Assembly (NCBI GenBank): GCA_050184115.1 | Contig: JBFXAQ010000002.1 | Span: forward strand, 81,290-145,289 | Direction: 5' to 3' | Length of the DNA: 64,000 nucleotides | Source of the DNA: Gammaproteobacteria bacterium | GTDB taxonomy: Bacteria; Pseudomonadota; Gammaproteobacteria; Ga0077536 | Shown: positions 9,625 through 50,964 of the stretch, piece by piece | Layout: each line of letters starts with the position of its first letter | Numbering within the stretch: position 1 is the stretch's first letter | The notes under the pieces: model-generated | What the model was told of the DNA's origin: nothing | What the model saw: only the letters and a program-made list of their open reading frames with translations | Database searches by the model: none | Position numbers and translations under genes: made by a program

Positions 9625-9782
9625 CGGTCGAGCTTCCTGGCCTGCTGCCGCCGGAGCGGTTCCCGCAGACGGCAGTGGCCGTGTATCATCGCCGCGCGCC
9701 GAGCCGACGGCAACCGACCCCAACGCGTGGGGCGCTGTCGCGAAGCACCCTCGACGCAATCCATGCCTTCAACTTCAGCGCC

Positions 9783-11283: not shown

Positions 11284-11914
11284 GACCGAGCACACGTTCG
11301 AGATCGGCGATGGCCTGCGCCTCTGACACCACCTTGATGGTGGTCATGCCCATGGCACGCGCCGGCCGCAGGTTGACGCCGAGGTCGTCGAGGTAGACCA
11401 CCTCGGCGGGGGGCACCGCCATGCGCTCGCAAGCCAGCGCGTAGATGCGCGGGTCGGGCTTGCGCAGCCCTTCCTTGCTCGATTCGATGACGTGGTCGAA
11501 GCGCGCCATGACGTCGGCGATCTCGGCCGCGTGCGCGGTCGAGTTGGCCATGCCGGGTCCGCGACCGGACTTCACGTTGTTGGTCAGGCACACCACCTTG
11601 TAGTCGGCCTTGCAGCGGTCGAGCACGGCGACCATGCGCGGTCGCACCGCGCCGCCGAGCAGGCCGAGCACGTCGTGGCCGGGAACCTCGTGACCGGCGG
11701 CGGCGGTCTCGGCGCGGAACTGGCAATCGAACTCGTCCTCGTCGATGCGGCTCGATTCGAAGCGCGCCCAGGCGTTGTCCTCGTGGTTGACGGCGTTCAC
11801 GCCGCGAATGAAATCCCGCGGCAGGCCGCGATCGGCCTCGTAACGGTTGAACGCCTCGAACGGCGAAGTCGTCAAGACCCCGCCGAAGTCCCACAGAATC
11901 GCGCGAAAGCTCAT
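11267..11914 (-). CDS. HAD-superfamily hydrolase
   Basis: HAD motif I DxG (AILWDFGGVLT) and a C-terminal …YLDDLGVNL… motif. ATG at the internal M (MSFRAIL) with GGGGGA RBS. The upstream extension of the ORF overlaps the promoter region. Confidence 0.75.
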   Translation of the reverse strand: MSFRAILWDFGGVLTTSPFEAFNRYEADRGLPRDFIRGVNAVNHEDNAWARFESSRIDEDEFDCQFRAETAAAGHEVPGHDVLGLLGGAVRPRMVAVLDRCKADYKVVCLTNNVKSGRGPGMANSTAHAAEIADVMARFDHVIESSKEGLRKPDPRIYALACERMAVPPAEVVYLDDLGVNLRPARAMGMTTIKVVSEAQAIADLERVLGLSFAV

Positions 11915-12009
11915 CGTTGTCCCCCAGGGATCGTTCCGGCGGGCATTTTCGCAGATTCGGCGCGGACGCCGGCACACATTCGACCGATCCCGGCTAAGCT
12001 CTCCGCACC

Positions 12010-12669
12010 ATGCACCTGCCCATCCTCGCCCTCTATCGCGCGACCGCTCCGGGCACCTTCGACGACGGCACCGCAAGCGGGATCTTCAAACAGGCGGTTG
12101 CCGGCGCCGTAACGCTCGGTCGCAACGGTCTCGACGGCGATGTCCAGGTCGACCGTAGCGTCCACGGTGGTGCCGACCAGGCCCTGCACCATTACCCCGC
12201 CGAGCACTATCCGAGGTTGGCGACGGCCTTCCCGCGCGCAGCACGGGATCTCGTGCCAGGTTCGATCGGCGAGAACCTCGCCACGCACGGTCTCGCCGAA
12301 GCTGACGTCTGCCTGGGCGACGTCTTCGCGGTCGGCGCCGTACGCCTGCAGGTCACGGCACCACGTCGGCCGTGCTGGAAGATCGACCGTCGCTACGACG
12401 CCCGCGGCATGGCCGCGTTCATCATCGACGCCGGCCTCACCGGCTGGTACTACCGCGTCCTCGACGGCGGCACACTGGCCGCCGGGGCGCAGATGGCGTG
12501 CATCGAACGACTGCCGTGTGCACCGAGCATCGCCGAGTTCCATGCCACGCTGCGCGCGGTTCGGCCACCGCGGGAAGCCCTGGAGCGATTCGCCGACCTC
12601 GGAGCCCTGCCCGCGGCCTGGCGGCGACGCCTGCGCGAGCGGCTCGACTGGTTGCGGCGCCATCCCTGA
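12010..12669 (+). CDS. MOSC-domain protein (YiiM/YcbX-like; molybdenum cofactor sulfurase C-terminal domain family)
   Basis: 219 aa. Conserved MOSC β-barrel with the invariant Cys (…APRRPCWKID…) and a C-terminal 3-alpha helical tail, as in YiiM. Confidence 0.8.
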   Translation: MHLPILALYRATAPGTFDDGTASGIFKQAVAGAVTLGRNGLDGDVQVDRSVHGGADQALHHYPAEHYPRLATAFPRAARDLVPGSIGENLATHGLAEADVCLGDVFAVGAVRLQVTAPRRPCWKIDRRYDARGMAAFIIDAGLTGWYYRVLDGGTLAAGAQMACIERLPCAPSIAEFHATLRAVRPPREALERFADLGALPAAWRRRLRERLDWLRRHP

Positions 12670-12697
12670 TCCGCACCGCCGTGTACGAGCGGTTATC

Positions 12698-13705
12698 ATG
12701 CGCATCGCCGCGGCCAGCCGCGCAACGCCCGACAGTCGAGAGGTCCCCCGTTCCGTGAATGCAGCAGCGCCCACCGAATCCCCCGCCCGCGCGGCCATTG
12801 TCGACATCCAGCGCGGCCTCGCCGCCTCCGGTTACATCGCGAGCGACGCCATCGCGACCGTGCTCTACCTCGCCCGGGCCCTGTCCAAGCCGGTCCTGGT
12901 CGAGGGCCCGCCCGGGGTCGGCAAGACCGAACTGGCCAACGCGGCATCGCGCCTGTTCGACAAGCCGCTCATTCGCCTGCAATGCTACGAAGGCCTCGAC
13001 GAGTCGCGCGCGCTCTACGAATGGAAGTACGGCAAGCAGCTGCTCTACACGCAGGTGCTGAAAGAGAAGCTCGGCGACCTCATGGCCGGCGCGCAAGGTC
13101 TGAAGGAATCCATCGCCCGGTTGCACGAGTTCGACGACACCTTCTTCAACGAGGAATTCCTCGAACCACGGCCCCTGCTCAAGGCCCTGTGGGCCGAACA
13201 CGGCGCAGTGCTTCTGATCGACGAAATCGACAAGTCCGACCAGGAGTTCGAGGCCTTCCTGCTCGAGCTGCTCGCCGACTACCAGATTTCCATTCCCGAG
13301 ATCGGCACGGTGCGCGCCAAGCATCCGCCGCTGGTCTTCCTGACCTCGAACAACACGCGCGAGATCGGCGATGCGCTCAAGCGCCGCTGCCTGCACCTGT
13401 TCATCCCCTTCCCCGATCACAAGCTCGAGCAGCGCATCATCGAATCCCGCGTACCGGAACTCGAGGCGCGACTGCGCGGCCAGCTGGTCAACTTCGTGCA
13501 GGGGCTGCGCGGGCTCGACCTGAAGAAGGTGCCGGCGGTCAGCGAGACCATCGACTGGGCGCGCACGCTGGTGCTGATGCACGCCAACGAGCTCGACAAC
13601 CAGCTCGTGCGCCAGACCCTGAACGTGTTGCTGAAATTCCAGGACGACATCGAGAACGTCGATGCGGAGATCCCCGCGCTGACGCGGGCGGCCGGTAAGA
13701 ACTGA
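12698..13705 (+). CDS. MoxR-family AAA+ ATPase (CoxD-like)
   Basis: Walker A GPPGVGKT, Walker B LLIDEIDK and sensor/arginine-finger region typical of the MoxR/CoxD subfamily. ATG is 29 nt after the MOSC stop. The upstream part of the 521-aa ORF is an out-of-frame overlap with the MOSC gene. Confidence 0.8.
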   Translation: MRIAAASRATPDSREVPRSVNAAAPTESPARAAIVDIQRGLAASGYIASDAIATVLYLARALSKPVLVEGPPGVGKTELANAASRLFDKPLIRLQCYEGLDESRALYEWKYGKQLLYTQVLKEKLGDLMAGAQGLKESIARLHEFDDTFFNEEFLEPRPLLKALWAEHGAVLLIDEIDKSDQEFEAFLLELLADYQISIPEIGTVRAKHPPLVFLTSNNTREIGDALKRRCLHLFIPFPDHKLEQRIIESRVPELEARLRGQLVNFVQGLRGLDLKKVPAVSETIDWARTLVLMHANELDNQLVRQTLNVLLKFQDDIENVDAEIPALTRAAGKN

Positions 13706-15227: not shown

Positions 15228-17492
15228 ATGGCGCAGATCGAAACCTACCGCAACGCGCTGAAGCCCGGCCAACGGGTGCTGTGGTACGAGATCGAGGGTA
15301 CGCTCGGCCAGGGCGGCTTCGGCATCACCTACGTCGCCCGGGACACCAACCTCAAGCAACCGGTCGCGCTGAAGGAGTTCCTGCCGAGCGAACTCGCCGT
15401 GCGCGAGGGCGAGTTCGAAGTCCACCCGTTGTCCAACGCTCGCGCCGGGAGCTTCGCCTGGGGCCTGGAGAAATTCATGGACGAGGCGCGCACGCTGGCG
15501 CACTTCGACCACCCCAATATCGTCAAGGTCTACACCGTATTCGAAGCGAACAACACCGCCTACATGGTGATGCGCTACGAGGACGGCCTCAGCCTCGGCA
15601 GCATCTACAGCAAGCGCCGCCGCCTGCCCGAGCGCCTGCTGCAGCACCTCGTACATCCGCTGCTCGATGGCCTCGAAACCGTGCATGACCAGGGTTTCAT
15701 CCACCGTGACATCAAGCCCGACAACATCTACCTGCGCCAGGACGGTTCACCTGTCCTCATCGATTTCGGCTCGGCGCGCATCGCCGTCGGCTCCGAGACG
15801 CGCGCGCTGACCTCGCTGGTGACGCCGGGCTACGCGCCGTTCGAGCAGTACGTGACCGGCAGCGACCGCCAGGGTCCGTGGTCGGACATCTACAGTCTCG
15901 GTGCCACGCTCTACCGTGGTATCGCCGGCATCGCGCCACCCGACGCCACCAACCGCAGCGAGGCGTTGAGCTATACCGGCAAGGACGTCCTGGTGCCCGC
16001 GCTCGAGGTCGGCCACGACCGCTATTCCGAACCGTTCCTGAGTGCTGTCGACGCGGCGCTGGCCTTCCGCTACGACGAACGGCCACAGAACGTCGTCGAG
16101 TGGCGGCGCATGTTCCGCGCGCGTCGCCGCCGCAAGGGCCGTCAACCGCGGGACGTACCGAGCGAGGAAGTCGAGGCGCCGAAAGTGCGTGCGGCCGAGT
16201 TCGCGGCGGTCGACGAAGCCACACCCGCGCGCGCGCCCACCGCGCCGCTCGCCACGGACGACGGCGCGTTGGAGGACGACCTGTTCGACAATCCGTTCAC
16301 CGACCCCGAGCAGGCCGCGCTCGGCGACGCCGCGGAACGCGACGACACGCCGCCCGCGGGTGGCCGGCGGTGGCGCGCCTGGCTGCTCGCCGCGGGCGTG
16401 CTGCTGGCGCTCGGCGCGGCCGCGTGGTTCCTGCGCGATACGACAACGCCAGGCGTGAGGCCGTCGGCGAATGCAGCGGAGGCGCCGGACGAGGCGCGCG
16501 CGCCACCACCAACGGTCGCGGTACCCGCGTCGACGAATCCGCCGGCGGCCACAACGACAACGGCGACCACGACCACCGCCGCAGTCGCCGACGCGAAGTC
16601 GGACGCCGCGACCCAAGCCACCGCAACGGGCGCCTGCGCCGCCGTAACCACCCTGCCGCGGCTGCCGAGCGTGGCCGAACGCCTCGCCGCCGGGGCCGAC
16701 ATCCCGCGGTACGTCGTCGAGACCATCAGCCTGCACGGTCCGGACAATTCCTCGATCGGCGCCGTGCTCGCCGCCGCCGGCGGCGCCATGGAGGCCCGCC
16801 GCGCCACCCTCGCCGCCGCCCATGGCGATGGCAACCAGCTCTCCGCCAACGACATCGAGGCCCTCGCGGAGTTGCTCACCGGCACGCTCCAAGACCAGGG
16901 CCTGCTCGCCACGGCCATTGCCCCGATGCAGTACCTCGACCAGCAACGCCTGGCGCTTGCCGTGCTGCCATGGCGTCTCGGCGAGGTCAGGTTGCGCGGC
17001 GTGCCGGGGGAGTTCCGCGCCGCCAACGAGGCTGTCACCCGTGCCGCCCTGGGCGCGACGCTCCGCGCGAGCCTCGAGCAGGCCCCGCACGCGCATGCAC
17101 TCAAGCGGGCCCTCCTCGACACCCTCCTCGACCCGGCCTTCCATGGCTCCGCTTTTGCCGTGCTCGAACCCGCCGCGCGCCAGGCGCGCTTCGACGTAGT
17201 GCTGAAATGGCAGGATGCCAAGCCTGCATTCGATCCGGCCACGGTCGATATCGACCGCCTTTACATCTACGCCGTCGCCGGTAGCGGCGCGCGGCTGCCG
17301 CTGACTCAACTGGCAAAGGACGCTGCGGCCACGGTCGACGCCGATCTCGATGCCGCCGATTACGCCGCGCAGGTGTTGGACCTCGTCGCGCCGCCCGGCG
17401 TCGACGCCGACGGCGATTGCCGGCGCGACGCCTTGCTTGCGGCCTACCGCTCGGCACGGCAGGCGCTGGCCGCGACCCCGGTCGCGCACTGA
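15228..17492 (+). CDS. Membrane-anchored Hanks-type Ser/Thr protein kinase with a large extracytoplasmic domain of unknown fold
   Basis: Kinase subdomains present: GQGGFG…ALK, HRDIKPDNI, DFG, TPGYAPFE. Followed by a basic/acidic linker, one TM helix (WRAWLLAAGVLLALGAAAWFL), a Pro/Thr-rich stalk (…ATTTTATTTTAAV…) and an Ala-rich domain of about 270 aa. Confidence 0.85.
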   Translation: MAQIETYRNALKPGQRVLWYEIEGTLGQGGFGITYVARDTNLKQPVALKEFLPSELAVREGEFEVHPLSNARAGSFAWGLEKFMDEARTLAHFDHPNIVKVYTVFEANNTAYMVMRYEDGLSLGSIYSKRRRLPERLLQHLVHPLLDGLETVHDQGFIHRDIKPDNIYLRQDGSPVLIDFGSARIAVGSETRALTSLVTPGYAPFEQYVTGSDRQGPWSDIYSLGATLYRGIAGIAPPDATNRSEALSYTGKDVLVPALEVGHDRYSEPFLSAVDAALAFRYDERPQNVVEWRRMFRARRRRKGRQPRDVPSEEVEAPKVRAAEFAAVDEATPARAPTAPLATDDGALEDDLFDNPFTDPEQAALGDAAERDDTPPAGGRRWRAWLLAAGVLLALGAAAWFLRDTTTPGVRPSANAAEAPDEARAPPPTVAVPASTNPPAATTTTATTTTAAVADAKSDAATQATATGACAAVTTLPRLPSVAERLAAGADIPRYVVETISLHGPDNSSIGAVLAAAGGAMEARRATLAAAHGDGNQLSANDIEALAELLTGTLQDQGLLATAIAPMQYLDQQRLALAVLPWRLGEVRLRGVPGEFRAANEAVTRAALGATLRASLEQAPHAHALKRALLDTLLDPAFHGSAFAVLEPAARQARFDVVLKWQDAKPAFDPATVDIDRLYIYAVAGSGARLPLTQLAKDAAATVDADLDAADYAAQVLDLVAPPGVDADGDCRRDALLAAYRSARQALAATPVAH

Positions 17493-38081: not shown

Positions 38082-38549
38082 TCAGGTCCGCGTGAGCGGC
38101 AGCGCGGTCTTCTTCGCCACCGTGCGCAGGGTGAAGCTCGACTTGACCCGCGCCACCCCGGGCAGCTTGGTCAGGTACTGGTGGTGGATGCGCTCGTAGT
38201 CGACGGTGTCACGGGCCACCACCCGCAGCAGGTAGTCGTACTCACCAGTGACGAGATAGCACTCCATCACCTCCGGCACCTCGCGCACCGCGGCCTCGAA
38301 ACGGTCGAGGTCCTGCTGCTGCTGGCTGACCAGGGTGATCTCGGCGAAGACATTGCCCGGGATGCCAACCGCCACCGGGTCCACGAGCATGGTGTAGCGG
38401 TCGATGACCCCGCCCTCCTCGAGCAGGCGCACGCGCCGCAGGCAGGCCGATTCCGACAGGTGCACGCGTTCGGCGAGCTGGACGTTGGTCATGCGCCCGT
38501 CCGCCTGGAGAGCGGCCAGGATGGCGCGATCCGTGGCATCGATTTTCAT
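38082..38549 (-). CDS. Lrp/AsnC-family transcriptional regulator
   Basis: HTH_AsnC N-terminus (…ILAALQADGRMTNVQLAERVHLSESACLRRVRLLEE…) and RAM domain C-terminus. 155 aa from MKIDATD. Divergent from ald. Confidence 0.85.
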   Translation of the reverse strand: MKIDATDRAILAALQADGRMTNVQLAERVHLSESACLRRVRLLEEGGVIDRYTMLVDPVAVGIPGNVFAEITLVSQQQQDLDRFEAAVREVPEVMECYLVTGEYDYLLRVVARDTVDYERIHHQYLTKLPGVARVKSSFTLRTVAKKTALPLTRT

Positions 38550-38550
38550 C

Positions 38551-38569
38551 GTTCGAATTAAATTCGAAC
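38551..38569. promoter_or_regulatory. Perfect 9-1-9 palindrome GTTCGAATT-A-AATTCGAAC abutting the lrp-family start codon, within the lrp/ald divergent intergenic region
   Basis: Read directly from sequence. Located 2-20 nt upstream of the regulator ATG. AT-rich TTCGAA-containing half-sites recur further into the intergenic region. Typical of Lrp/AsnC autoregulatory operators. Confidence 0.5.
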
Positions 38570-38717
38570 GATTGTCGACTTTCCAGCAGTTATTTCGAAA
38601 TCGACCGCCATCCGCCGTCGAATACGCAAGCCAATTTCGTCCGGGCCGGCCTACAGTAGCCACTCATCGGCAGCGCGTCGGGCGCTCCCTGCCAGCCACT
38701 CCCAGGAGGACCGGGCC

Positions 38718-39836
<1,119 letters not shown>

Positions 39837-40860
39837 GCCTGCGCGTGCTCGGCGCGACGGCGATCGGCGAAGCCGGCGAGGAGCCAGGCGAGGTCCTGGC
39901 GATAGGTCGCCGTCTCGCCGCCGCGCAGGGCCGCGGCCACCATGCGGCGCAGCAGCTTGGACAGCTCGGCGGCGGCCATGCGCAGCGCGAGACCGTCGCC
40001 GCGCCGGATGAACTTGTAGTAGAAGCCACCGCGCCCGCGCAGGTAGCGCTGGCGCAGTGCGGCGATGTCCGGCTCGCTGCGCCGGCCGTGGTGGTGGTAG
40101 ACGACCACCCCGGGTTCGTAGCTCAGGCGGTAGCCGGCGCGAAACGCGCGGTAGACGACATCGGCGTCGTTGCCCGAACCGACCGGCGCCCCCGGTCCTA
40201 CCAGCGGATCGAAGTGCCCGAGCGCGTCGAGGCAAGCCCGGCGCAGGGCCATGTTGCAGCCGATGAGCAGGGTGAACTGGCGGCGCGGCGAAGTCAGCAG
40301 GACGCGCTCGCGGCCACTGCGCGTGGTCAGCGCGGCATCGCCCGCGTCGTGGAGTTCGACCCGCCCGCCGAAGCCGTCCAACGCCGGGTCGGCGTCGAAG
40401 ACAGCGCGGATGTCGTCGAGCCAGCTCGCCGGCAGCAGGCAGTCGTCGTCGGTGAACGCGATGACGTCGCCGCGGGCGACCGTGAGCGCATGGTTCAGCG
40501 CCAGCGGCTTGCCCGGGGTCGCTTCGGTCAGCGCGGTCAACGGCAGCCCGGCACGCCCCGACCACGCCTCGAGCAGCGCCGGCGTGGTGTCGCGCGAGCC
40601 GTTGTCGACCACGATCAGCTCCCACTCGAGGCCGTCGCCGGGCTGCAGTTTCCCGGCGCTCTCGAGCAGGGCCGCGAGGGACGCGGCACGATCGCGGGTC
40701 GCGACGATGACACTGATGTACATGGTTTCGCCGTTCGTTGCGGGGCATCGCACGGCCGGCGCGGGCGCCGCCGTCGGCTTGACCGGCTGGTGGTCAGATC
40801 GTAGCGTGCGCTGGCCCTGCCGCGCGCAGAATCCTAACACCCCTCCAAGGAGCCCGGCGC

Positions 40861-42948
40861 ATGCCCTATCGCATCTCCGTCGACACCGGTGGCACGTTCA
40901 CCGATGTCGTCGTCACTGACGAACGTGGCCGATTCACCGTTGGCAAGGCGCTCACCGACAAGAAGCGCGCCTTCGCCAGCATCGCTGCGGGACTGGCCGT
41001 CGCCGCCGAGGAACTCGGTCTCGAGGTGCCGGCCCTGCTGGCCGAGACCAGTGTCTTCCTCTACGGCACCACGCGCGGCACCAACGGCATCGTCGAGCGC
41101 AAGATCGCGCGCACGGCCTTCCTGACCACGCAGGGCTTCCCCGACATCCTGTTGCTGAAGGAAGGCGGCAAGTCCGAGCCGCACAACCTGCGCATGGAGT
41201 ACCCGGACCCGTACGTCCCGCGCCGCCTGACCTTCGAGGTACCCGAACGCGTCAACGCCGAGGGCGGTATCGAGACGGCGCTGGACGAGGCCGCGGTGCG
41301 CGAACTGCTGGCGGGTTTCCCCGCGCGCGGCATCGAGGCCGTGGCGGTGTGCCTGCTGTGGTCGATCGCGAACCCGGCGCACGAACTGCGCGTGGGCGAA
41401 TTGATTGCCGAGTGCCTGCCCGGGGTGCCGTACACGCTCTCGCACCAGTTGAACCCCATCCTGCGCGAGTACCGGCGGGCGTCATCGACGGCCATCGACG
41501 CCTCGCTGAAACCACTGATGCAGGAATACCTGACGACCCTCGAATCCGACCTGCGCGCGGCGGGTTACGCCAACGACATCCTGGTCAGCACCTCCTTCGG
41601 CGGCGTGATGCACCTCGCCGACGTAGTGAAAAAGCCGATCTTCCTCGTCAAGTCCGGCCCGGCGATGGCGCCGGTGGCAGGGCAGGCCTACGTCGAGGCG
41701 GAAGGCCTGCCGAGCGACATCATCGTCTGCGACGCCGGTGGCACGACCTTCGACGTCAGCCTCGTGCGCGACGGCGAGGTCGAGTTCTCGCGCGACACCT
41801 GGCTCGGGCCGCAATGGACGGGCGACAACCTCGGCATGGCCTCGGTGGCGGTGCATTCCATCGGCGCCGGCGGCGGCTCGATCGCCTGGGTCGACTCGGG
41901 CGGCCTCCTGCGCGTCGGCCCGCACTCGGCCGGCTCGGAACCGGGCCCGGCCTGCTACGGCCGCGGCGGCGAAGAACCGACGGTGACCGACGCCGCGGTG
42001 GTGCTCGGTTACATCGACCCGGCGCACTTCCTCGGCGGGCGCATGGCACTCGACGAGGACGCGGCGAAGCGCGTCGTCGGCAAGCTGGCGGAGACCCTGA
42101 ACGAATCGGTCGAACGGACCGCCTTCGCCATCCTCACGGTCGCCAACGAGAACATGATCGAGGCCATCAAGGAGCTGACCATCAACGAGGGCATCAACCC
42201 GTCGGAGTCCACGCTCATCGGCGGCGGCGGCGCGGGCGGACTCAACATCGTCCCCATCGCCGCCGAACTCGGCTGCCGCACGGTACTGGTACCGCGCACC
42301 GCCGGCGCCCTGTCGGCCTCCGGCATGCAGTTCTCGGACATCGTCACCGAGGCCGGGGCGAGCAAGCTCACCGCCACCGACCAGTTCGACTACGACGGTG
42401 TGAACGCTGCACTGGCGAGCATCGACGCGCAGCTCGACACCTTCGCTGCACGGCTGCGCGAACGCGGCTTCACGGACGTGCGCACGCGCTACTTCGTGGA
42501 AGCACGCTACCGCTTCCAGGTGTGGGAGCTCGAGATCGAGGTCGGACGCAACCGCTTCGAGGGCGAGGCCGACGTCGCGGCGCTCATCGAGGCCTTCCAC
42601 CAGATGCACGAGCGGGTGTTCGCCATCACCGACCCCGGCCAGGCGGTCGAGTGTCTCAACTGGCGCGGACGGCTGGTGGCGAACGTCAAGGCACCGACCC
42701 TGGAGCCGAGCCGCGCCGGCAAGACGGTCAGGGCCGAGCCCGACCGCCGCCGCCCGGCCTACTTCGCCGGTGGCCTCGTCGAGACCGCCATCTACCTCGG
42801 CGACCAGCTCGCGCCGGATGCCGTCATCGAGGGTCCGGCGATCATCGAGGAGCCGACCTCGACCCTGGTCGTCAACCCGGGAGCCACGGCACGGGTCAGC
42901 GCCGGCGGCCGTTACATCCTCACCCCGCCCGCGGAGGCCGCGCTATGA
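40861..42948 (+). CDS. hyuA: Hydantoinase/oxoprolinase family protein, A subunit (HyuA/OplA/acetone-carboxylase-beta-like)
   Basis: N-terminal ASKHA-fold signature (…RISVDTGGTFTDVVV…), 695 aa. AAGGAG RBS. Confidence 0.85.
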   Translation: MPYRISVDTGGTFTDVVVTDERGRFTVGKALTDKKRAFASIAAGLAVAAEELGLEVPALLAETSVFLYGTTRGTNGIVERKIARTAFLTTQGFPDILLLKEGGKSEPHNLRMEYPDPYVPRRLTFEVPERVNAEGGIETALDEAAVRELLAGFPARGIEAVAVCLLWSIANPAHELRVGELIAECLPGVPYTLSHQLNPILREYRRASSTAIDASLKPLMQEYLTTLESDLRAAGYANDILVSTSFGGVMHLADVVKKPIFLVKSGPAMAPVAGQAYVEAEGLPSDIIVCDAGGTTFDVSLVRDGEVEFSRDTWLGPQWTGDNLGMASVAVHSIGAGGGSIAWVDSGGLLRVGPHSAGSEPGPACYGRGGEEPTVTDAAVVLGYIDPAHFLGGRMALDEDAAKRVVGKLAETLNESVERTAFAILTVANENMIEAIKELTINEGINPSESTLIGGGGAGGLNIVPIAAELGCRTVLVPRTAGALSASGMQFSDIVTEAGASKLTATDQFDYDGVNAALASIDAQLDTFAARLRERGFTDVRTRYFVEARYRFQVWELEIEVGRNRFEGEADVAALIEAFHQMHERVFAITDPGQAVECLNWRGRLVANVKAPTLEPSRAGKTVRAEPDRRRPAYFAGGLVETAIYLGDQLAPDAVIEGPAIIEEPTSTLVVNPGATARVSAGGRYILTPPAEAAL

Positions 42949-44750
42949 ACAAGCCCGAGAACGAAGCCCAGGTCGCCTACGAGATGGACCCGGTGTTGAT
43001 GGCGGTCTTGTCGAACCGCCTCAACGCGATCGTGCGCGAGATGTCGAACACCCTGCTGCGCACCGCGCGCTCGGCGGTGCTCGCGGTGGTGCGCGACTTC
43101 TCCTGCTCCATCGTCACCGCCGACAACCAGTTGCTGTGCCCGGGCGAAGGCCTGCCGGTGCACATCTTCGGCAGCGCGCTGCAGTCGCAGTCGATGTGCG
43201 ACACGCACAAGGATCTCGCGCCGGGCGACGCCTTCCTGCACAACGATCCCTACATGGGCAACACCCACCCGGCCGATCACATGATCATGTGCCCGGTGTT
43301 CGTCGACGGCGTGCACCTGTTCACCACCTGCGCCAAGGCCCACCAGGCCGATTGCGGCAACTCCATCCCGAGCACCTACCACGCCTACGCCCGCGACATC
43401 TACGAGGAAGGTGCGCTGATCTTCCCCTGCGTGCGCGTGCAGAAGGACTACAAGGACGTCGACGACATCATCCGCATGTGCCGCCGGCGCATCCGCGTAC
43501 CGGAACAGTGGTACGGCGATTACCTCGCCACCGTCGGCGCCGCGCGCATCGGCGAACGGCGCCTCGCGGAGCTGACCCGGCGCTACGGCATCGACACCAT
43601 CCGCCAGTTCGTGCAGGACTGGTTCGCCTATTCCGAGAAACGCATGATCGAGGCCATTCGCCAGCTGCCGGCCGGGCGGCTCGAGAACGTCACGGTCTAC
43701 GACCCGCTGCCGCCGGTGCTGCCGGACGGCCTGCCGATCAAGGTCGCCATCGACATCGACCCGGACGGCGGGCGCATCGAGGTGGATCTCAGCGACAACC
43801 CCGACAACCTCGATTTCGGTCTCAACGAATCGGTCGCCTGCGCGACCAGCAACGCGCTCTGCGGCGTCTTCAACTGCCTCGACCCCGACGTCCCGCACAA
43901 CGAGGGCAGCTTCCGCCGCCTGTCGGTGAAACTGCGCAAGGGCTGTGTCACCGGCATTCCCGAGTTCCCGCATTCGTGCTCAATGGCGACGACCAACATC
44001 GGCGACCGCATCGTCAACGCCACGCAGGCCGCCTTCGCCGGCATCGGCGACGGCCACGGGCTGGCCGAAGGGGCGGTCGGCATGGGCGCCGGTGCCGGCG
44101 TCATCTCGGGCAAGGACTGGCGCCTCGGCGGCAGCCCCTACATCAACCAGGAATGGCTGGTGGTCAACGGCGGCCCGGCCACGCCGGAGACCGACGGCTG
44201 GCTCAACTACGGCCTGCCGGTCGCCGCCGGCCTCATGTACCGCGGCTCGGTCGAGGTCGACGAATCGAAGTACCCGATGCTGTTCAAGTCGCTGCGCGTG
44301 GTCGCCGGCGGTGGTGGCGCCGGCCGCTTCCGCGGCGCGCCCGGCGCCGAGGTGATCTACGGCCCGCGCCGCGACCCGATGACGGTGGTGGTGTCCTGCG
44401 ACGGCCAGGTCAACCCGCCGCAGGGCGTGCGCGGCGGCCGCGACGGACCGGCCGCCGCAACCTTCAAGGTCAGGCCGGACGGCCAGGAAGAGAAGCTGCC
44501 GGGTGTGGTCGAGTGCCGCCTCGCGCCGGGCGAATGGGTCCGCGGGGTCGACGCCGGCGGCGGTGGCTACGGTTCGCCGCTGGAACGCGATCCGGCGCGG
44601 GTGCTGAAGGACGTGCTCGAGCGCTGGGAGACCATCGAGCGTGCCCGGGATGTCTACGGGGTGGTCTTCTCGGGTCATGCCGACGACGAGAGCCTCGTCA
44701 TCGACATGGCCGCAACCCGCGCGCGTCGGGCGGAACTCGCCGCAGCCTGA
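42945..44750 (+). CDS. hyuB: Hydantoinase/oxoprolinase family protein, B subunit (HyuB/OplB-like)
   Basis: 601 aa from MNKPENE…. The ATG overlaps the hyuA stop (ATGA). Conserved HyuB blocks (…DPYMGNTHPADH…, …GGGGYGSPLERDP…). Confidence 0.85.
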   Translation: MNKPENEAQVAYEMDPVLMAVLSNRLNAIVREMSNTLLRTARSAVLAVVRDFSCSIVTADNQLLCPGEGLPVHIFGSALQSQSMCDTHKDLAPGDAFLHNDPYMGNTHPADHMIMCPVFVDGVHLFTTCAKAHQADCGNSIPSTYHAYARDIYEEGALIFPCVRVQKDYKDVDDIIRMCRRRIRVPEQWYGDYLATVGAARIGERRLAELTRRYGIDTIRQFVQDWFAYSEKRMIEAIRQLPAGRLENVTVYDPLPPVLPDGLPIKVAIDIDPDGGRIEVDLSDNPDNLDFGLNESVACATSNALCGVFNCLDPDVPHNEGSFRRLSVKLRKGCVTGIPEFPHSCSMATTNIGDRIVNATQAAFAGIGDGHGLAEGAVGMGAGAGVISGKDWRLGGSPYINQEWLVVNGGPATPETDGWLNYGLPVAAGLMYRGSVEVDESKYPMLFKSLRVVAGGGGAGRFRGAPGAEVIYGPRRDPMTVVVSCDGQVNPPQGVRGGRDGPAAATFKVRPDGQEEKLPGVVECRLAPGEWVRGVDAGGGGYGSPLERDPARVLKDVLERWETIERARDVYGVVFSGHADDESLVIDMAATRARRAELAAA

Positions 44751-44800
44751 ACGTGCACGACAGCCGCGGTGCACCCGTGCCGTGGCTGCACCGGCCCAGC
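44751..44800. terminator. Hairpin between the convergent hyuB copies (stem CGGTGCA/TGCACCG, loop of about 13 nt). Possible bidirectional terminator.
   Basis: Inverted repeat read from the sequence at the centre of the large hyuB palindrome. No U-tract. Confidence 0.35.
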
Positions 44801-46597
44801 TCAGCGCATGGCTGCGCGCCGTGCCAGAGTCGCGGCGACATCGACGGCGAGCGTGTCGCTGTCGACGTCGCCCAGCAGCTCCACGCCGTAGATCGCCTGC
44901 GCACGTTCTACGGTCTCCCATTTCTCGCGCACGTCGCGCAGCACGCGCGCCGGATCGCGTTCCAGCGGCGAACCGTAGCCACCGCCCCCCGCTTCGACCC
45001 CGCGCACGCACTCGCCCGCAGCCAGCGTCAGCTCGACCGTGCCGGGCAGCTGTTCCTCGCGGCCATCGGCATGCACCTTGTAGGTCCTTGCGCCCGGTCC
45101 GTCGTGGCCGCCGCGCACGCCCTGCGGCGGGTTGACCTGGCCGTCGCACATCGTCACCACCGTCATCGGGTCGCGGCGCGGCCCATACATGACGTCGGCG
45201 CCAGGCGCGCCGCGGAAGCGGCCGGCCCCGCCGCCGCCTGCGCGCACGCGCAGGTGTCGAACCAGGATGGGGTGCTTGGATTCCTCGACTTCGACCGAGC
45301 CGCGATAGATGAGACCCCCGGCCACCGGCAGGCCGTAGTTGAGCCAGCCGTCGCTGACCGGGGTGCCTGGCCCGCCGTTGACCACCAGCCATTCTTGGTT
45401 GATGTAGGGTTTGCCGCCCGTGCGCCAGTCCCTGCCCGAGATGACCGCGGCCGCGGGGCCGATGCCCATCGCCCCTTCGGCCAGGCCGTGGCCTTCACCG
45501 ATGCCCGCGAAGGCCGACTGCACGGCATTGACGATGCGGTCGCCGATGTTGGTCGTCGCCATCGAACAGGAATGCGGGAACTCCGGAACGCCGGTGACGC
45601 AACCGTCGCGCAGCTTGACCGTCAGCCGTGCGAAGGAACCGGCGTTGTGTGGCACCGTGGGGTCGATGCAGTTGAACACGCCGCACAGCGCGTTGCTGGT
45701 CGCACAGGCCACCGATTCGTTCAGACCGAACGCCAGGTTGTCGGCATTGTCGGTGAGATCGACCTCGATGTGGCCGGCGTCCGGGTCGACCGTCACCGCG
45801 ACTTTGATCGGCAAACCGTGTGGGATCGCCGGTGGCAACGGATCGTAGACGCTGGTGCTTTCCAGGCGCCCTGCCGGCAGCTCGCGGATGGCCTCGACCA
45901 TGCGCTTCTCGGAGTAGGCGAACCAGTCCTCGACGAAGCGCCGGATGGTGTCGACGCCGTAGCGCCGGGTCAGTTCGACCAGCCGCCGCTCGCCGATGCG
46001 CGCGGCACCGACGGTGGCGAGGTAGTCGCCGTACCACTGCTCGGGCACGCGGATGCGCCGCCGGCACATGCGGATGATGTCGTCGATGTCCTTGTAGTCC
46101 TTCTGCACCCGTACGCAGGGAAAGATCAAGGCACCTTCCTCGTAGATGTCGCGCGCCGTTGCGTGGTAGGTGCTGGGGATGGAGTTGCCGCAGTCGGCCT
46201 GGTGGGCCTTGGCGCAGGCCGTGAACAGGTGCACACCGTCGACGAACACCGGCACCATGAACATGTGGTCGGCCGGGTGGGTGTTGCCCATGTAGGGGTC
46301 GTTGTGCAGGAAGGCGTCGCCCGGCGCGAGGTCGTCGTGCAACTCGCACATCACCTTCGTCTGCAGGTTGGAGCCGAAGATGTGCACCGGCACCCCCTCG
46401 CCCGGGCACAGCAGGCGGTTGTCCGCGGTCACCAACGAGCATGAGAAATCGCGTACCACCGCGAGCACCGCCGAGCGCGCGGTGCGCAGCAGGGTGTTGG
46501 TCATCTCGCGCACGATGGCGTTGAGGCGGTTCGACAAGACCGCCATCAGCATGGGGTCGAGTTCGTAGCCGATGCCTTCGTTGTTCTGGTCGTTCAT
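44801..46597 (-). CDS. Second hydantoinase/oxoprolinase B-subunit paralog (about 85% aa identity to the upstream hyuB), convergent and without its own A subunit
   Basis: 598 aa starting MNDQNNEGIGYELDPMLMAVLSNRLNAIVREM…, near-colinear with HyuB at 42945-44750. GGAGG RBS 8 nt upstream. Confidence 0.85.
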   Translation of the reverse strand: MNDQNNEGIGYELDPMLMAVLSNRLNAIVREMTNTLLRTARSAVLAVVRDFSCSLVTADNRLLCPGEGVPVHIFGSNLQTKVMCELHDDLAPGDAFLHNDPYMGNTHPADHMFMVPVFVDGVHLFTACAKAHQADCGNSIPSTYHATARDIYEEGALIFPCVRVQKDYKDIDDIIRMCRRRIRVPEQWYGDYLATVGAARIGERRLVELTRRYGVDTIRRFVEDWFAYSEKRMVEAIRELPAGRLESTSVYDPLPPAIPHGLPIKVAVTVDPDAGHIEVDLTDNADNLAFGLNESVACATSNALCGVFNCIDPTVPHNAGSFARLTVKLRDGCVTGVPEFPHSCSMATTNIGDRIVNAVQSAFAGIGEGHGLAEGAMGIGPAAAVISGRDWRTGGKPYINQEWLVVNGGPGTPVSDGWLNYGLPVAGGLIYRGSVEVEESKHPILVRHLRVRAGGGGAGRFRGAPGADVMYGPRRDPMTVVTMCDGQVNPPQGVRGGHDGPGARTYKVHADGREEQLPGTVELTLAAGECVRGVEAGGGGYGSPLERDPARVLRDVREKWETVERAQAIYGVELLGDVDSDTLAVDVAATLARRAAMR

Positions 46598-46802
46598 AGC
46601 ACGGCCTCCGTGGGCGGAATGGGGACAGTACGACTAGCGGCGCCGCCCCCCGCTACGGACCCCGTAACGGCGACGGGCGTCGCGGAGGACTCCGGAACCG
46701 ATTGTCGCACGACCACTGGCGGCGTCACCCCGCGGGCACCCGGCGAGCGGTGCTTGGAGACGGCGCGGCCCCGTGCAACGGCGGCGACGTGCTTGCGGGC
46801 GG

Positions 46803-48914
46803 TCAATCACCGGGCGCGCCGCGGCCGCGGTTGCGTCCGGCGCCCGTCATCGTCGCCACCAGCTGCCGCCACGCCGGCAGGTCTTCCAGCGCCTCGACCG
46901 TCACGCCGAGCTTGCGCCGCCAGTTGGGATACTCGTCGTAGGTGCCGGGCACGTTGACCGGCGTGTCCTCGCCGCTGACGTCGTCGAGTTGGACCACTGC
47001 GAGCATGGCCGCGCTGCGCGCGACGAGTTCGTGCAGCAGGCCGGTGACGGCAGCGGCATCGTTGCCCGGATCGCCAAGGCCGAGTTCCGCGGCGAGCGCC
47101 AGCAGGCCGGCGCGTTCTGCCTCGCGCCGGCCGCGTTCGGCGTCGCCGAAATCCGCGTCCGGGTAGAGCGCCAGCGCCTCGCGCCGCGCGATGTCGGCGC
47201 CCGACCACAATTCGGCGACGGTCGGCATATCGTGGGTGACGACGGTGGCGAGCGCCTGCGCGGGGTACTCGTGGGGGCGCTTGAAGCTGCCGTCGCCGTC
47301 CCAGTGGCGTTCGAACAGCAGCACGCGGTAGGACAGCACGCCGCGCGCGGCGAGGGCCTCGCGCAAACCCTCGGGAACCGAGCCGAGATCCTCGCCCACC
47401 ACCAGGCAATGCTGGCGCACGCTCTCCAGCGCGAGCACCGCGGCGAGGCAGTCGAAGGGCTGGCGCAGGTAGGCGCCGTCCTCGCCGCGTCGCCCCGCCG
47501 GGATCCAGAACAGGCGGCGCAGCGCCATGACATGGTCGATGCGCAGTGCGCCGGCGTGGCGCATGTTGGCGGCCAACAACTCGGCGAAGGGGCGGTAGGC
47601 GCGCTCGGCCAGTTCGCGCGGATTCCACGGCGGCAGCCCCCAGTCCTGGCCGTTGTGGTTGAGCAGGTCGGGCGGCGCGCCGACGCTGGCGCCATGGGCG
47701 ACGAGACCACCGGCCGCCCAGCACTCGCTGCCCACCGGCGACGCCCCGACGGCGACGTCGCGGTAGAGACCGATTTCCATGCCGCCTGCGCGCGCGACCG
47801 CGGCCACCGCGGCCAGTTGCTCGTCGGCCTGCCATTGCAGCCACGCGACAAATTCGACCTCGGCCGCGTGCTCGCAGCGCCATGCCGCGACTTCGGCGCC
47901 GCGCGGATCGCGCCATGCGGCCGGCCAGCGGCGCCAGTCCGTGCTGCGGCCGTTGACGTGGCAGGCGAGGCGCAGCGCCTCACCGGTGGCGAAGTCCTCG
48001 AGCCAGTGCGCCGCGGCGCGAAACGCCTCGAACGCTGCACGGCGCGCCGGCGATGCCGCCACGCGGAAGCACTCGAAGCCGGCGCGCAGCACCGGCAGCT
48101 TGAGCGCCGCGATCGCCGCATGGTCGACCAGTGGCTCGGCCCGCGCCGCCGCCAGGCGCGACTGGAATTCCGCCTCCGCCATCAGCGCCCGTGCCAACGG
48201 CGAGGCCTGCACGTCGGGCACCGCCGTGACATCGAGGTAGAGCGGATCGAGTGCATAGCGCGACGCCGGCGCGTAGGGGCTGGCCTCGTGCGGCTCGGCG
48301 AGGTGGCGCGCGTGCAGCGGGTTGACGCCGACCAGGGCGGCACCGGCGCGCGCCGCGCTGGCGACGACGCGCGCCAGGTCGGTGAAGTCGCCCATGCCCC
48401 AGTTGCTCGCCGAGCCCAGGCTGTAGACCTGCACGGCGAGCCCCCAGCGGCGCGCGCCGCGCGCCAGCGTGTCCGGCAGCCAGGCCCGCGCCGGCGCGGC
48501 GATGACGCAGCAGCGCGTGCCGTGCGCCGGCAGGTGGAGCTGGTGGTAACCGGGTGGCAGGACCAGCCCGGTCTCGAGGCGACAGGTGACCGTGTCCGCG
48601 CCGGCGGCGTCCCCTGTCGCGATCGCGGTCGTCGTGCCCGCGTGGCAGGCCCCGCCCTCCTCGACCACTTCCCAGGCCACGACGGCGCCGGCCGCGGTGG
48701 CCGGCAGCCGGCACGCGAGGGCGAGGGGCTCGCCCACGGTCACGCAGGCGGCGGCGGGCAGCACGGCCGCGCCACCATCGCCGTCGCTCGTGGCCAGCGC
48801 GGCGAGCAGCGCGCGGGCGGTGTCCTCGCCCAGCACGCGGTGCATGCCGAGGCCGTCCCAGTAGTCCGGTTCGAGGCCGGCGGCGAACGCCGCGGCACGC
48901 CAGTCCTCAACCAT
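46803..48914 (-). CDS. malQ: 4-alpha-glucanotransferase (amylomaltase)
   Basis: GH77 catalytic regions (…YSLGSASNWGMGDF…, …GVNPLH…). 703 aa from [10 protein letters not shown]…. The 213-aa N-terminal extension of the ORF overlaps glgX in another frame and is rejected. Confidence 0.85.
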   Translation of the reverse strand: MVEDWRAAAFAAGLEPDYWDGLGMHRVLGEDTARALLAALATSDGDGGAAVLPAAACVTVGEPLALACRLPATAAGAVVAWEVVEEGGACHAGTTTAIATGDAAGADTVTCRLETGLVLPPGYHQLHLPAHGTRCCVIAAPARAWLPDTLARGARRWGLAVQVYSLGSASNWGMGDFTDLARVVASAARAGAALVGVNPLHARHLAEPHEASPYAPASRYALDPLYLDVTAVPDVQASPLARALMAEAEFQSRLAAARAEPLVDHAAIAALKLPVLRAGFECFRVAASPARRAAFEAFRAAAHWLEDFATGEALRLACHVNGRSTDWRRWPAAWRDPRGAEVAAWRCEHAAEVEFVAWLQWQADEQLAAVAAVARAGGMEIGLYRDVAVGASPVGSECWAAGGLVAHGASVGAPPDLLNHNGQDWGLPPWNPRELAERAYRPFAELLAANMRHAGALRIDHVMALRRLFWIPAGRRGEDGAYLRQPFDCLAAVLALESVRQHCLVVGEDLGSVPEGLREALAARGVLSYRVLLFERHWDGDGSFKRPHEYPAQALATVVTHDMPTVAELWSGADIARREALALYPDADFGDAERGRREAERAGLLALAAELGLGDPGNDAAAVTGLLHELVARSAAMLAVVQLDDVSGEDTPVNVPGTYDEYPNWRRKLGVTVEALEDLPAWRQLVATMTGAGRNRGRGAPGD

Positions 48915-50964
48915 GACCCGGCTCCACGCGCGAACGCAGCACGACGACCGCTTCGGGTGGCACCGGCAGGCGCGCGCCGGTGAGCGCCAGGCCACTCGCG
49001 CTGCTGTCGAGTACGAGCGTCCAGGCCGCGCCGGGCGCCGGTGGCAGGACGAATTCGATGGCCTGCGCGTGCGGATTGAACAGCACGGCCAGCGCCGCGT
49101 CGTCGCCGTCGTCGCGCCCGGGACGCATGCCGAAGGCGCGGCCGTCGAGCGTGTCCCAGGCCGGTGCGTCGAGCGCCGCGCCGTCGGGCCCGAACCAGTG
49201 CACGTCGGCTTCGCCGTTGTACAGCACGCCGTCCGCCAGCCAGCGCGTGCGCCGCAGGGCGCCGTGCGCGCGCCGCAGGGCGGCGAGCTCGCCGACGAAG
49301 GCACCGAGGGTGTCGTCGCAACGACTCCAGTCGATCCAGCCGAGCGCGTTGTCCTGGCACCAGGGATTGTTGTTGCCGTGCTGGCTGCGTGCGCCGTCGT
49401 CACCGGCCGGCAGCATCGGCACGCCCTGCGAGAGGTACAGCGTGGCGAGCATGGCGCGGACGAGGCGTGCGCGGCGCGCGACGATGGCGGGATCGTCGCT
49501 CGGCCCCTCCACGCCGCAGTTGGTGCTGCGGTTGCTGTCCGTGCCGTCGGCATTGTCCTGGCCGTTGGCCTCGTTGTGCTTGTGCGCGTAGGCGACGAGG
49601 TCGGCGAGGGTGAAACCGTCGTGGGCGGTGACGAAGTTGATGCCGGCGTGTGGGCTCGCGCGGTTGTGGGCGAAGAGGTCGGCCGAGCCGGCGAGGCGTC
49701 GTGCCAGTTCGCCGCGGCTCGCCTGGCCGGTCAGCCAGTAGTCGCGCACGGCATCGCGGTAGCGATCGTTCCACTCGGCGAAGGGCGGCGGAAAGGCACC
49801 GGTCGCCCAGGTCGCGATGTCCCAGGGCTCGGCGATGAGCTTGAGCCCGGCCAGCGCCGGCTCCTGGCGCAGGCAGTCGAAGAAGCTCGCGCGCGGTTCG
49901 AAGCCGTGGGCGTTGCGGCCGAGCGCGGTCGCGAGGTCGAAGCGAAAACCGTCGACGTGCATGTCCTCGGCCCAGAAGCGCAGCGAATCCATCACCAGTT
50001 GCAGCACGCGCGGGTGGTCAAGGTTGAGGGTGTTGCCGCAGCCGCTGAGGTCGATGTCGCGCGCCGGGTCGTGCGGGTCGAGGCGGTAATAGCTCGCGTT
50101 GTCGAGCCCGCGGAAGGCGTAGGTCGGACCGTCGAAACCGCCCTCGGCGGTGTGGTTGTAGACGACGTCGAGGATGACCTCGAGACCGGCCGCGTGCAGC
50201 GCCCGCACCATGTCACGGAAAGCCGTGCGCGGCTCGGCGCCGCCGGCATAGCGCGCGCTCGGTGCGAAATAGCCGAGTGTGCTGTAGCCCCAGTAGTTGA
50301 CCGCACCGCGTGCGGCCAACATGGGCTCGTCGACCATGGCCTGGATCGGCAGCAGCTCGACGGCCGTCGCGCCCATGGCGCGCAGCCGCGCGATGGCAGC
50401 CGGATGGGCGAGACCGGCATAAGTACCACGCAGGGCCGTCGGCACCGCCGGATCGAGCATGGTGAAGCCCTTGACGTGAGCCTCGCAGATCACGGTGTCA
50501 CGCCACGGCGTCGCCGGTCGACGATCGCCCTGCCAATCGAAGTCCTGCTCGTCGACGACCATCGCGCGCCAGGCGCAGGCCGCGTTGTCGCGGCCATCCG
50601 CGCGGCCGGGCCGGCGCGGGTCGGCGCCGCGGTGACGTTCGCTCCAGGCGTAAGGGCCGACCAGCGCGCGGGCATAAGGATCGAGCAGCAGCTTGTGCGG
50701 GTTGTGGCGATGCCCGGCGTGGGGGGCATACGGGCCGTGCACGCGGTAGCCGTAGACGGTGCCCGGACCGGCCTGCGGCAGGTAGGCATGCCAGACGTCG
50801 TCACTGCGCGCGCCGAGCGCGATACGGGCGCGCTCGGGGCCTGCGGCGCCTTCGAACAGGCACAGCTCGACGCGTTCGGCGTGGGCGGCGAAGAGCGCGA
50901 AGTTGACCCCCTCGCCGTCCCAGTGCGCGCCGAGCGGCCAGGGTCGGCCCGGTGCGCTCAGCAT
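48907..50964 (-). CDS. glgX: Glycogen debranching enzyme
   Basis: CBM48 plus GH13 (…[10 protein letters not shown]…, …GFRFDLA…, …EPWD…). 685 aa. Confidence 0.9.

Follow-up and report, generated by a model that had tools for sequence, protein, structure and literature searches.

The DNA considered here is a window of 64,000 nucleotides from a gammaproteobacterium of the lineage Ga0077536 (assembly GCA_050184115.1, contig JBFXAQ010000002.1, positions 81,290 to 145,289), and "the window" always means this whole stretch. It contains two genes for the beta subunit of an ATP-dependent cyclic-amide hydrolase, hyuB1 and hyuB2, which face each other tail to tail beside a single hyuA for the ATP-binding alpha subunit. 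Comparison with relatives argues with good confidence that an old inverted duplication of the whole hyuA-hyuB operon took place at this locus, in which hyuA-hyuB1 would be the original and hyuB2 the beta gene of the second, convergent copy, and that hyuA2 was later deleted in the lineage of the window. That HyuB2 now works by sharing the one remaining HyuA is a finely balanced proposal, which we put slightly short of an even chance. The evolutionary and functional parts combined form an explanation that is, on balance, favoured.

Two diverged hyuB copies around one hyuA

The list of open reading frames (ORFs) and their translations place hyuA-hyuB1 on the plus strand and hyuB2 on the minus strand in convergent orientation (Table 1). 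HyuA matches the Pfam domains Hydant_A_N (E 8e-43), Hydantoinase_A (8e-79) and Hydant_A_C (5e-17). It carries the ATP phosphate-binding motifs DTGGTFTD (40872-40908) and DAGGT (41721-41757), which were read in repeat family D1 under the alpha-subunit definitions DxGGTxTD and DxGGT (PMC8453981). HyuB1 and HyuB2 both match Hydantoinase_B end to end (profile positions 1-519 of 519; E 1e-123 and 3e-125, respectively). No second hyuA was found in the 64-kb window by tblastn down to E<=1. An inverted two-copy layout with one hyuA had been described in a first-pass annotation made from the sequence alone, and it is borne out by the ORFs, the repeats, Pfam and tblastn. The same annotation correctly stated that hyuB1 is translationally coupled to hyuA, since the ATGA overlap of the hyuA stop and the hyuB1 start can be read directly. 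The three proteins have consecutive NCBI accessions (MGE0483788-MGE0483790) on one 596,660-bp contig of a metagenome-assembled genome (MAG). HyuB2 was missing from the homology matches, its protein cluster being represented by a 45-aa fragment.

A repeat search recovered the inverted arms as 42973-44282 / 45263-46572 (1310 nt, 85%) and 44292-44731 / 44814-45253 (440 nt, 78%), a similarity far beyond chance. The copies are collinear as had been stated, but their protein identity was overestimated at about 85% and is 81% (484/598). Nucleotide identity in a codon alignment is 82%, and only 70% at third positions. The long identical runs reported earlier shrink to a maximum of 44 nt, with 11 runs of at least 25 nt. 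By the Nei-Gojobori method, dS between the copies is 0.47 and dN 0.13, giving a dN/dS of 0.28, while G+C content at third codon positions (GC3) is 0.885 in hyuB2 vs 0.920 in hyuB1. Of the suggestion that the pair forms a recombinogenic, cruciform-prone palindrome, the cruciform part is unlikely to hold at 82% identity; the recombination part stands for the nearest relative, L026, where patchy gene conversion is real.

The hairpin in the stop-to-stop spacer folds at -32.6 kcal/mol (z = -2.0), and a consensus scan found no canonical intrinsic terminator in the spacer. This hairpin probably acts as a shared transcription stop lacking a U-tract, at which both convergent hyuB transcripts would end. 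Inverted repeat I6 (31 nt, 77%) matches the spacer to the 3' end of hyuA. A relic of hyuA2 would be expected on the other side of hyuB2, and the match was put down to chance or to the hairpin. At the other end of hyuB2, the ribosome-binding site and upstream region of about 200 bp noted earlier are present as a GGAGG Shine-Dalgarno sequence and 205 bp to the malQ stop, and the start codon also keeps an ATGA, which the annotation had credited only to hyuA-hyuB1. In this 205-bp gap, scans found no sigma-70-like promoter and no terminator-like site, there is no Rfam match, and folding is no better than that of shuffles (z +1.6).

Probable duplication of the operon and loss of hyuA2

The relatives used here (L003-L054) are loci from MAGs of uncultured Gammaproteobacteria, collected by a metagenome scan. 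In a neighbour-joining tree, the first hyuB of the window groups with those of L028, L026 (left operon), L032 and L033 at 100% bootstrap, and the second with those of L026 (right operon), L030 and L034, likewise at 100%; an earlier, smaller tree agrees with both clades. HyuB1 is 92-93% identical to its counterparts in L026, L032 and L033, and HyuB2 84-85% to its orthologs in L026, L030 and L034. The 849-kb contig L028 is collinear with the window through tsaE, nnr, rnt, recR, ybaB, dnaX, lrp, ald and hyuA-hyuB, followed by malQ, glgX, glgB, glgP and glgA. It has a single hyuB, 95.8% identical to HyuB1, which faces malQ across 22 bp, and no hyuB2. The order lrp-ald-hyuA-hyuB1 is shared by L028, L032 and L033, the latter two without a neighbouring B2. 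Given this conserved order and the single hyuB of L028, hyuB1 is best read as the ancestral syntenic copy and the partner of hyuA.

Whereas hyuB is single in L028, both paralogs occur in L026, the closest MAG that has them. Here two convergent operons, hyuA1-hyuB1 and hyuB2-hyuA2, enclose a 7-kb cassette, the order being hyuA1 and hyuB1 (forward), a 572-aa gene, a TonB-dependent receptor, a 254-aa gene, an acetyltransferase, and hyuB2 and hyuA2 (reverse). Two of the cassette genes have no Pfam match, and the cassette was not found anywhere in the window. The hyuB1 of L026 is 93% identical to window B1 and its hyuB2 85% to window B2. Two other MAGs, L027 and L030, reproduce the left and right halves of L026, respectively, and L033 ties the left operon to the lrp-ald locus. 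In L034, the B2 ortholog (84%) begins 151 nt from the contig start; those nucleotides resemble the 3' end of hyuA, reading ...CTGACCCCGCCCGAGGAG..., and hold a 41-aa ORF that overlaps the hyuB start by 4 nt. For each of the three B2-lineage orthologs whose upstream region is available, that region holds hyuA sequence.

A trace of the same arrangement appears to survive in the window. The 53 nt that directly precede the hyuB2 ATG match the final 53 nt of hyuA with no shift in register, reading ...CCGCCCACGGAGGCCGTGCTATGA vs ...CCGCCCGCGGAGGCCGCGCTATGA, and translate as PPTEAVL* where HyuA ends in PPAEAAL*. The local score of 32 stands above shuffles at 21.2 ± 3.2 (z 3.4) but only equals the best of 300 shuffles, and in so short a stretch the register alone is convincing. 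Because of this exact register and the preserved stop/start overlap, the stretch is a credible remnant of hyuA2, which would still supply the ribosome-binding site and the ATGA of hyuB2. A longer remnant was sought in 46598-46900: only the last 53 nt align, and a 70-nt match at 74% inside malQ was treated as chance similarity of G+C-rich sequence.

The hyuA copies of L026 indicate what was duplicated. Although these partial genes are 93% identical overall (95% in amino acids, vs 83% for the L026 B copies), they are a mosaic, with dS of 0.02 over codons 1-60, 0.50 over codons 61-170 and 0.12 over codons 171-382. The unconverted 330-nt segment (dS 0.50, dN 0.097) is comparable to B1/B2 (dS 0.47-0.50). 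Since it is as diverged as the hyuB copies, hyuA and hyuB would have been duplicated together and hyuA later homogenised by gene conversion. The window hyuA is A1-type over the segment that distinguishes hyuA1 from hyuA2 in L026. The mosaic clearly reflects gene conversion between the two inverted operons, and the L026 contig ends inside hyuA on both sides (1-1147 and 11759-12905), where the inverted copies reach 100% identity. The C-terminus of hyuA2 in L030 is A1-type (…PPAEGQV*) vs …PPAELTL* in L026.

Conversion has also touched hyuB. Of the site patterns in the quartet of window and L026 hyuB genes, 98 follow orthology, 49 group the copies within a genome and 9 are of other kinds; their clustering is strong (39 runs vs 66 ± 5 expected). 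The within-genome tracts mostly appear to reflect conversion in the L026 pair; base composition was rejected as their cause, GC3 being equal in both genomes. In the window, hyuB2 is B1-type at 23 of 88 diagnostic sites, with one cluster at codons 154-232, a count confounded by uncertain branching within the B2 clade. Six consecutive diagnostic sites of hyuB2 in these codons are B1-type, and hyuB1 is B2-type at only 2 of 60, which is suggestive of a B1-to-B2 tract. This resembles the general pattern of a duplicated operon with differential loss and conversion between inverted repeats, the evidence for conversion in the window pair itself being only suggestive.

As L028 is collinear with the window and has only hyuB1 facing malQ, the second operon copy would have been lost stepwise: both operons are present in L026, hyuA2 is gone in the window, and hyuA2 and hyuB2 are gone in L028. 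Another tail-to-tail layout with an extra B gene was seen in L031 (10001-15825) and L035 (1532-4042), where a distinct operon of hyuB-hyuA order (626 aa and 698 aa, only 48-49% identical) is faced by a convergent solo hyuB, 83% identical to B2.

HyuB2 as a possible second partner of HyuA

The dN/dS of hyuB2 against its orthologs is 0.155-0.159, and that of hyuB1 0.08-0.11. A three-taxon decomposition of pairwise distances in the B2 lineage gave an omega (dN/dS) of 0.155 for the window branch (dN 0.053, dS 0.343), 0.154 for L026 (dN 0.050, dS 0.325) and 0.162 for L034 (dN 0.064, dS 0.396). By these estimates the constraint on the orphaned hyuB2 equals that on copies accompanied by hyuA2. Evolution is faster in the B2 lineage as a whole than in B1 (ortholog identity 85% vs 93%), and this rate together with the lower GC3 is compatible with lower expression. 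The metal-binding tetrad Asp-His-Asp-His is found at D51/H108/D111/H133 in HyuB1 and D50/H107/D110/H132 in HyuB2 (by alignment to CapB D41/H99/D102/H124) and is invariant in all 26 relatives. Both copies keep the tyrosine proposed as acid/base (Tyr145; Y144 in HyuB2). In CapB the metal ligands are essential and this role of the tyrosine has been proposed (PMC8453981). An intact ORF, complete catalytic residues and an omega of 0.155 speak against the earlier suspicion that the second copy is a pseudogene.

Among solved structures, CapAB of Pseudomonas jessenii (PDB 6YRA; HyuA vs 6YRA_A E 4e-124, HyuB1 E 3e-65) is the best match for both subunits, followed by the fused N-methylhydantoinase 7HK5 and, more distantly, acetophenone and acetone carboxylases. 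In CapAB, ATP binding and lactam activation belong to the A subunit, from which a tunnel leads the intermediate to the metal site in B, and the complex is assembled as A-B-B-A around a B-B dimer core (PMC8453981). A B-B core has been predicted for all Hyd enzymes, whose clusters are described as two-gene hydAB units (PMC5214803). The window proteins have the hallmarks of this alpha-beta family, namely the alpha-subunit domains and ATP motifs, and full-length Hydantoinase_B with the metal tetrad in both betas. They resemble CapAB in domain content, in the ATP motifs of A and in the tetrad and tyrosine of B, and an A-B-B-A assembly is expected. Nevertheless, there are two beta genes per alpha gene here: hyuA-hyuB1 fits a two-gene unit with one alpha per beta, whereas the second hyuB has no second hyuA within 64 kb. 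The gene order is A-B instead of the B-A of the cap genes, and the CapAB equivalogs NF050156 and NF050157 (cut-off 1000 bits) score only 561.6 for HyuA, 267.4 for B1 and 271.9 for B2; NCBIfam scores are far below every equivalog cut-off. The pocket is more polar than that of CapB, with Glu403 for CapB Val386 and Gly353 for CapB Met339, and because of this difference the substrate is probably not that of CapAB.

Acetophenone carboxylase (Apc) belongs to the same superfamily and is the one characterised member in which a core subunit type occurs as two diverged paralogs in one complex. The first-pass annotation had drawn on its alpha/alpha' architecture, but the analogy picks the wrong subunit. 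HyuA matches both chains B and b of Apc (5L9W) and HyuB only chain A; Apc duplicates the ATP-binding HyuA type (alpha/alpha' 30% identical; PMC5214803), whereas the window duplicates the HyuB type (81% identical). Apc has its HyuA type twice (alpha, alpha') and its HyuB type once (beta), plus a small Cys4 gamma and an epsilon subunit. NCBIfam scores are 184 for ApcA, 298 for ApcC and 115-129 for ApcD against cut-offs of 1250-1500, and no gamma or epsilon gene was found beside the locus, hyuA-hyuB1 being flanked by a family-2 glycosyltransferase (GT2) gene and hyuB2. Acetone carboxylase (Acx) is also distinct. The alignment of HyuB1 to 5M45_A/5SVB_A is confined to residues 13-226 (E 5e-17), and Acx has a HyuB-type alpha of about 776 aa and a gamma subunit, vs B proteins of about 600 aa and no gamma gene in the window.

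Fourteen CapB pocket positions could be mapped, and B1 and B2 differ at three of them (L70V, M431I, S484M). Compared across the 26 relatives, positions 70/431/484 fall into classes. The primary copies adjacent to hyuA (window B1 and the first copies of L003, L006, L008 and L009) have L/M/S, the B2 lineage V/I/M, second copies of tandem operons A/I/S, and solo copies V/I/S or V/M/M; exceptions among hyuA-adjacent copies are L016 and L017 (L/M/A) and L014 (A/I/N). From these positions we infer two betas with slightly different substrate pockets. The high B1/B2 identity in the B-B interface region (96% vs 80%) was considered as evidence for a heterodimer and rejected, the region being conserved family-wide and therefore non-specific.

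Additional beta genes are common among the relatives. Tandem hyuA-hyuB-hyuB' operons with one hyuA occur in L003 (5916-11676), L008 (83-5831), L009 (5881-11652) and L037 (3917-9626), with gaps of 59-113 nt between hyuB paralogs that are 75-78% identical, and partial examples in L015 and L054. In these last two loci (L015 1-1649, L054 3-1327) the first tandem hyuB is split into two frames at a single point and the second is intact; the split gene is either a frameshifted pseudogene or a sequencing error. Tandem second copies form their own clade (98% bootstrap), and first and second copies stand apart from the window B1 and B2 clades, indicating that the tandem operons represent separate duplications from that of the window pair, and older ones. 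Approximately half of the sampled hyuB loci have no hyuA within 6-8 kb. Many of these solo hyuB genes share a syntenic setting, conserved over at least eight loci (L005, L007, L021, L038 and L049, with the gene at about 3.3-8 kb; variants L013, L023 and L051), and in these the metal tetrad is always kept. Upstream lie a two-component system (response regulator and histidine kinase), an M48 peptidase and a divergent GST, and downstream Hsp20, an alpha/beta hydrolase and a rhodanese. In these loci, one gene of an obligate two-subunit enzyme is stably separated from that of its partner. Supernumerary and unlinked beta genes are thus a stable feature of the clade; no published description of the solo or tandem arrangements was found in the searchable literature. 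Like the window, these loci have one hyuA with two intact hyuB, or a hyuB without a nearby hyuA, and vary at the same three pocket positions; unlike it, they are co-oriented or unlinked instead of convergent, and none has a hyuA relic.

On these grounds, we propose that hyuB2 still encodes a functional, metal-dependent beta subunit, and that the enzyme is an ATP-dependent hydrolase of cyclic amides, of the caprolactamase/oxoprolinase/N-methylhydantoinase type. The subunit would borrow the sole remaining HyuA, which would perform the ATP-dependent activation step, and the outcome would be isoenzymes (A-B1)2 and (A-B2)2 or a mixed A-B1-B2-A tetramer. Transcripts of hyuB2 would probably arise either as malQ read-through or at a promoter that went unrecognised in the 205-bp gap. 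In L026, the hyuA copies were homogenised while hyuB stayed diverged, which fits an interchangeable A with distinct B subunits and would explain why loss of hyuA2 was tolerated. Together with the tandem operons, the solo hyuB synteny and the CapAB tetramer, this makes one A serving two B plausible. The spare B subunit offered as an explanation in the first-pass annotation likewise stays plausible, given two intact collinear hyuB genes and one hyuA in the window.

Several observations weigh against this proposal or its evolutionary background. No promoter was found for hyuB2 in the scanned upstream gap, and both its expression and the binding of HyuB2 to HyuA are putative. Another hyuA may lie outside the 64 kb, elsewhere in the genome. 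The high identity at B-B and A-B contacts is shared across the family and so non-specific, the window-branch omega averages the time before and after the loss of hyuA2, and the relic is short. Among the sampled loci of the metagenome scan there is no other case of the 50-bp tail-to-tail layout. The L026 and L030 contigs break inside hyuA and so end short of anything beyond hyuA2, and L028 demonstrates that hyuB2 is dispensable in a close relative.

The most serious rival, although we regard it as unlikely, is that HyuB2 has another HyuA as its partner, with the gene elsewhere in the genome beyond the window; the place of hyuB2 beside hyuA-hyuB1 would then be functionally meaningless. The clade often keeps a solo hyuB at a distance from any hyuA and in conserved synteny, which implies that the subunits can pair in trans, and one MAG has two separate hyuAB operons (L006, L020). 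Nevertheless, the window holds no second hyuA, the lineage's own hyuA2 is demonstrably lost, and the near-identical HyuA copies of L026 suggest interchangeability. Less probable still is that only hyuB was duplicated anciently, with a breakpoint about 50 nt inside hyuA, and that the hyuA2 of L026, L030 and L034 was added later. Just 53 nt of hyuA-like sequence precede hyuB2, and the L026 hyuA copies at 93% overall look younger than the B copies; however, their 330-nt segment of dS 0.50 flanked by dS 0.02-0.12 is the mark of conversion in an old duplicate and not of a young copy, and every B2-lineage ortholog with upstream sequence has hyuA before it. There is an even slighter chance that hyuB2 is a stranded, functionless orphan heading towards a pseudogene. 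Its partner gene is lost, hyuB2 itself is lost in the collinear L028, no promoter is predicted, and lower GC3 (0.885 vs 0.920) and the faster B2 rate (85% vs 93% ortholog identity) would fit decay, but the 598-codon ORF is intact with all catalytic residues, omega equals that of orthologs still accompanied by hyuA2, and the B2 lineage in its entirety, not the orphan in particular, evolves at the faster rate. Finally, both ideas mooted in the first-pass annotation, an inverted segmental duplication of recent date and an assembly artefact (fold-back or chimera), are highly improbable: although the sequence is a MAG contig and this exact layout was seen in no other sampled locus, a fold-back would give identical arms and a recent long palindrome near-identical ones with dS about 0 and no separate orthologs, vs 18% nucleotide divergence, no identical run above 44 nt, dS 0.47, B1 and B2 lineages each monophyletic at 100% bootstrap, both flanks collinear with the single L028 contig, and consecutive accessions. 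Arms as different as these would not be mistaken for one another by an assembler.

Neighbouring genes and wider meaning

Table 1. Features of the hyu locus and its neighbours in the window (coordinates of the 64-kb stretch).
Feature	Position	Strand	Description
lrp/asnC regulator	38082-38663	-	Pfam match; conserved upstream neighbour of hyuA-hyuB1
ald (alanine dehydrogenase)	38718-39836	+	Pfam match; conserved upstream neighbour of hyuA-hyuB1
hyuA	40861-42948	+	695 aa, ATP-binding alpha subunit; sole hyuA of the window
hyuB1	42945-44750	+	601 aa, beta subunit; ATG overlaps hyuA TGA as ATGA (read directly)
Stop-to-stop spacer	44751-44800		exactly 50 bp; G+C-rich 12-bp hairpin at 44761-44788
hyuB2	44801-46597	-	598 aa, second beta subunit; intact ORF without its own hyuA
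Candidate hyuA2 3'-end relic	46598-46650	-	53 nt with GGAGG ribosome-binding site and ATGA stop/start overlap
Rest of malQ-hyuB2 gap	46651-46802	-	featureless, no recognisable signal
malQ (4-alpha-glucanotransferase)	46803-48953 (start approximate)	-	Pfam Glyco_hydro_77, MalQ_N

Upstream of hyuA lie dnaX (-), lrp/asnC (-), ald (+) and a family-2 glycosyltransferase gene (39797-40840, -), which fills the ald-hyuA gap, overlaps the 3' end of ald by 40 nt and starts 20 nt from the hyuA ATG. This gene is missing in the collinear L028 and L033, where the ald-hyuA gap is 239-267 bp; therefore, hyuA-hyuB1 is flanked by lineage-specific genes on both sides and its promoter region has been rearranged. 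On the other side, a minus-strand glycogen cluster, glgA-glgP-glgB-glgX-malQ, ends just upstream of hyuB2. The longest malQ ORF (46803-49553, -, 916 aa) overlaps glgX (48907-50964) by about 650 nt, for which reason the true start is probably near 48.95 kb; the Pfam domains of this long ORF begin at residue 265. Elsewhere in the window and unrelated to hyu are a 1301-aa sensor histidine kinase with many PAS domains (5854-9759, -) and a 754-aa Ser/Thr protein kinase (15228-17492, +).

To a large extent, the locus is ordinary paralog evolution, comprising operon duplication, partial concerted evolution and stepwise loss, and its mildly novel part is the complement of one alpha gene to two beta genes. 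No report of two HyuB per HyuA was found in the searchable literature, and an A-B-B'-A subunit composition has not been described for the family. More speculatively, the clade may routinely pair one HyuA with at least two diverged HyuB, as A2B2 isoenzymes or as A-B-B'-A on a B-B' core, with pockets 70/431/484 setting the substrate range. It is a similarly doubtful extension that the convergent pair, the tandem operons and the solo hyuB genes would all express this one scheme.

As it stands, the locus is a clean and well-documented case in which an operon was duplicated, one of its genes evolved in concert, the other diverged and parts were lost step by step, which is of value for annotation and unsurprising. 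If one HyuA does serve two HyuB, the alpha:beta pairing rule would need revising for the family that includes 5-oxoprolinase, N-methylhydantoinase, caprolactamase and the ketone carboxylases, and annotation pipelines built around hydAB pairs would wrongly score a solo hyuB as incomplete. Mixing of beta subunits on a common ATP-activating subunit could also offer a modular route to new biocatalysts for lactam hydrolysis, aimed at nylon monomers and valerolactams.

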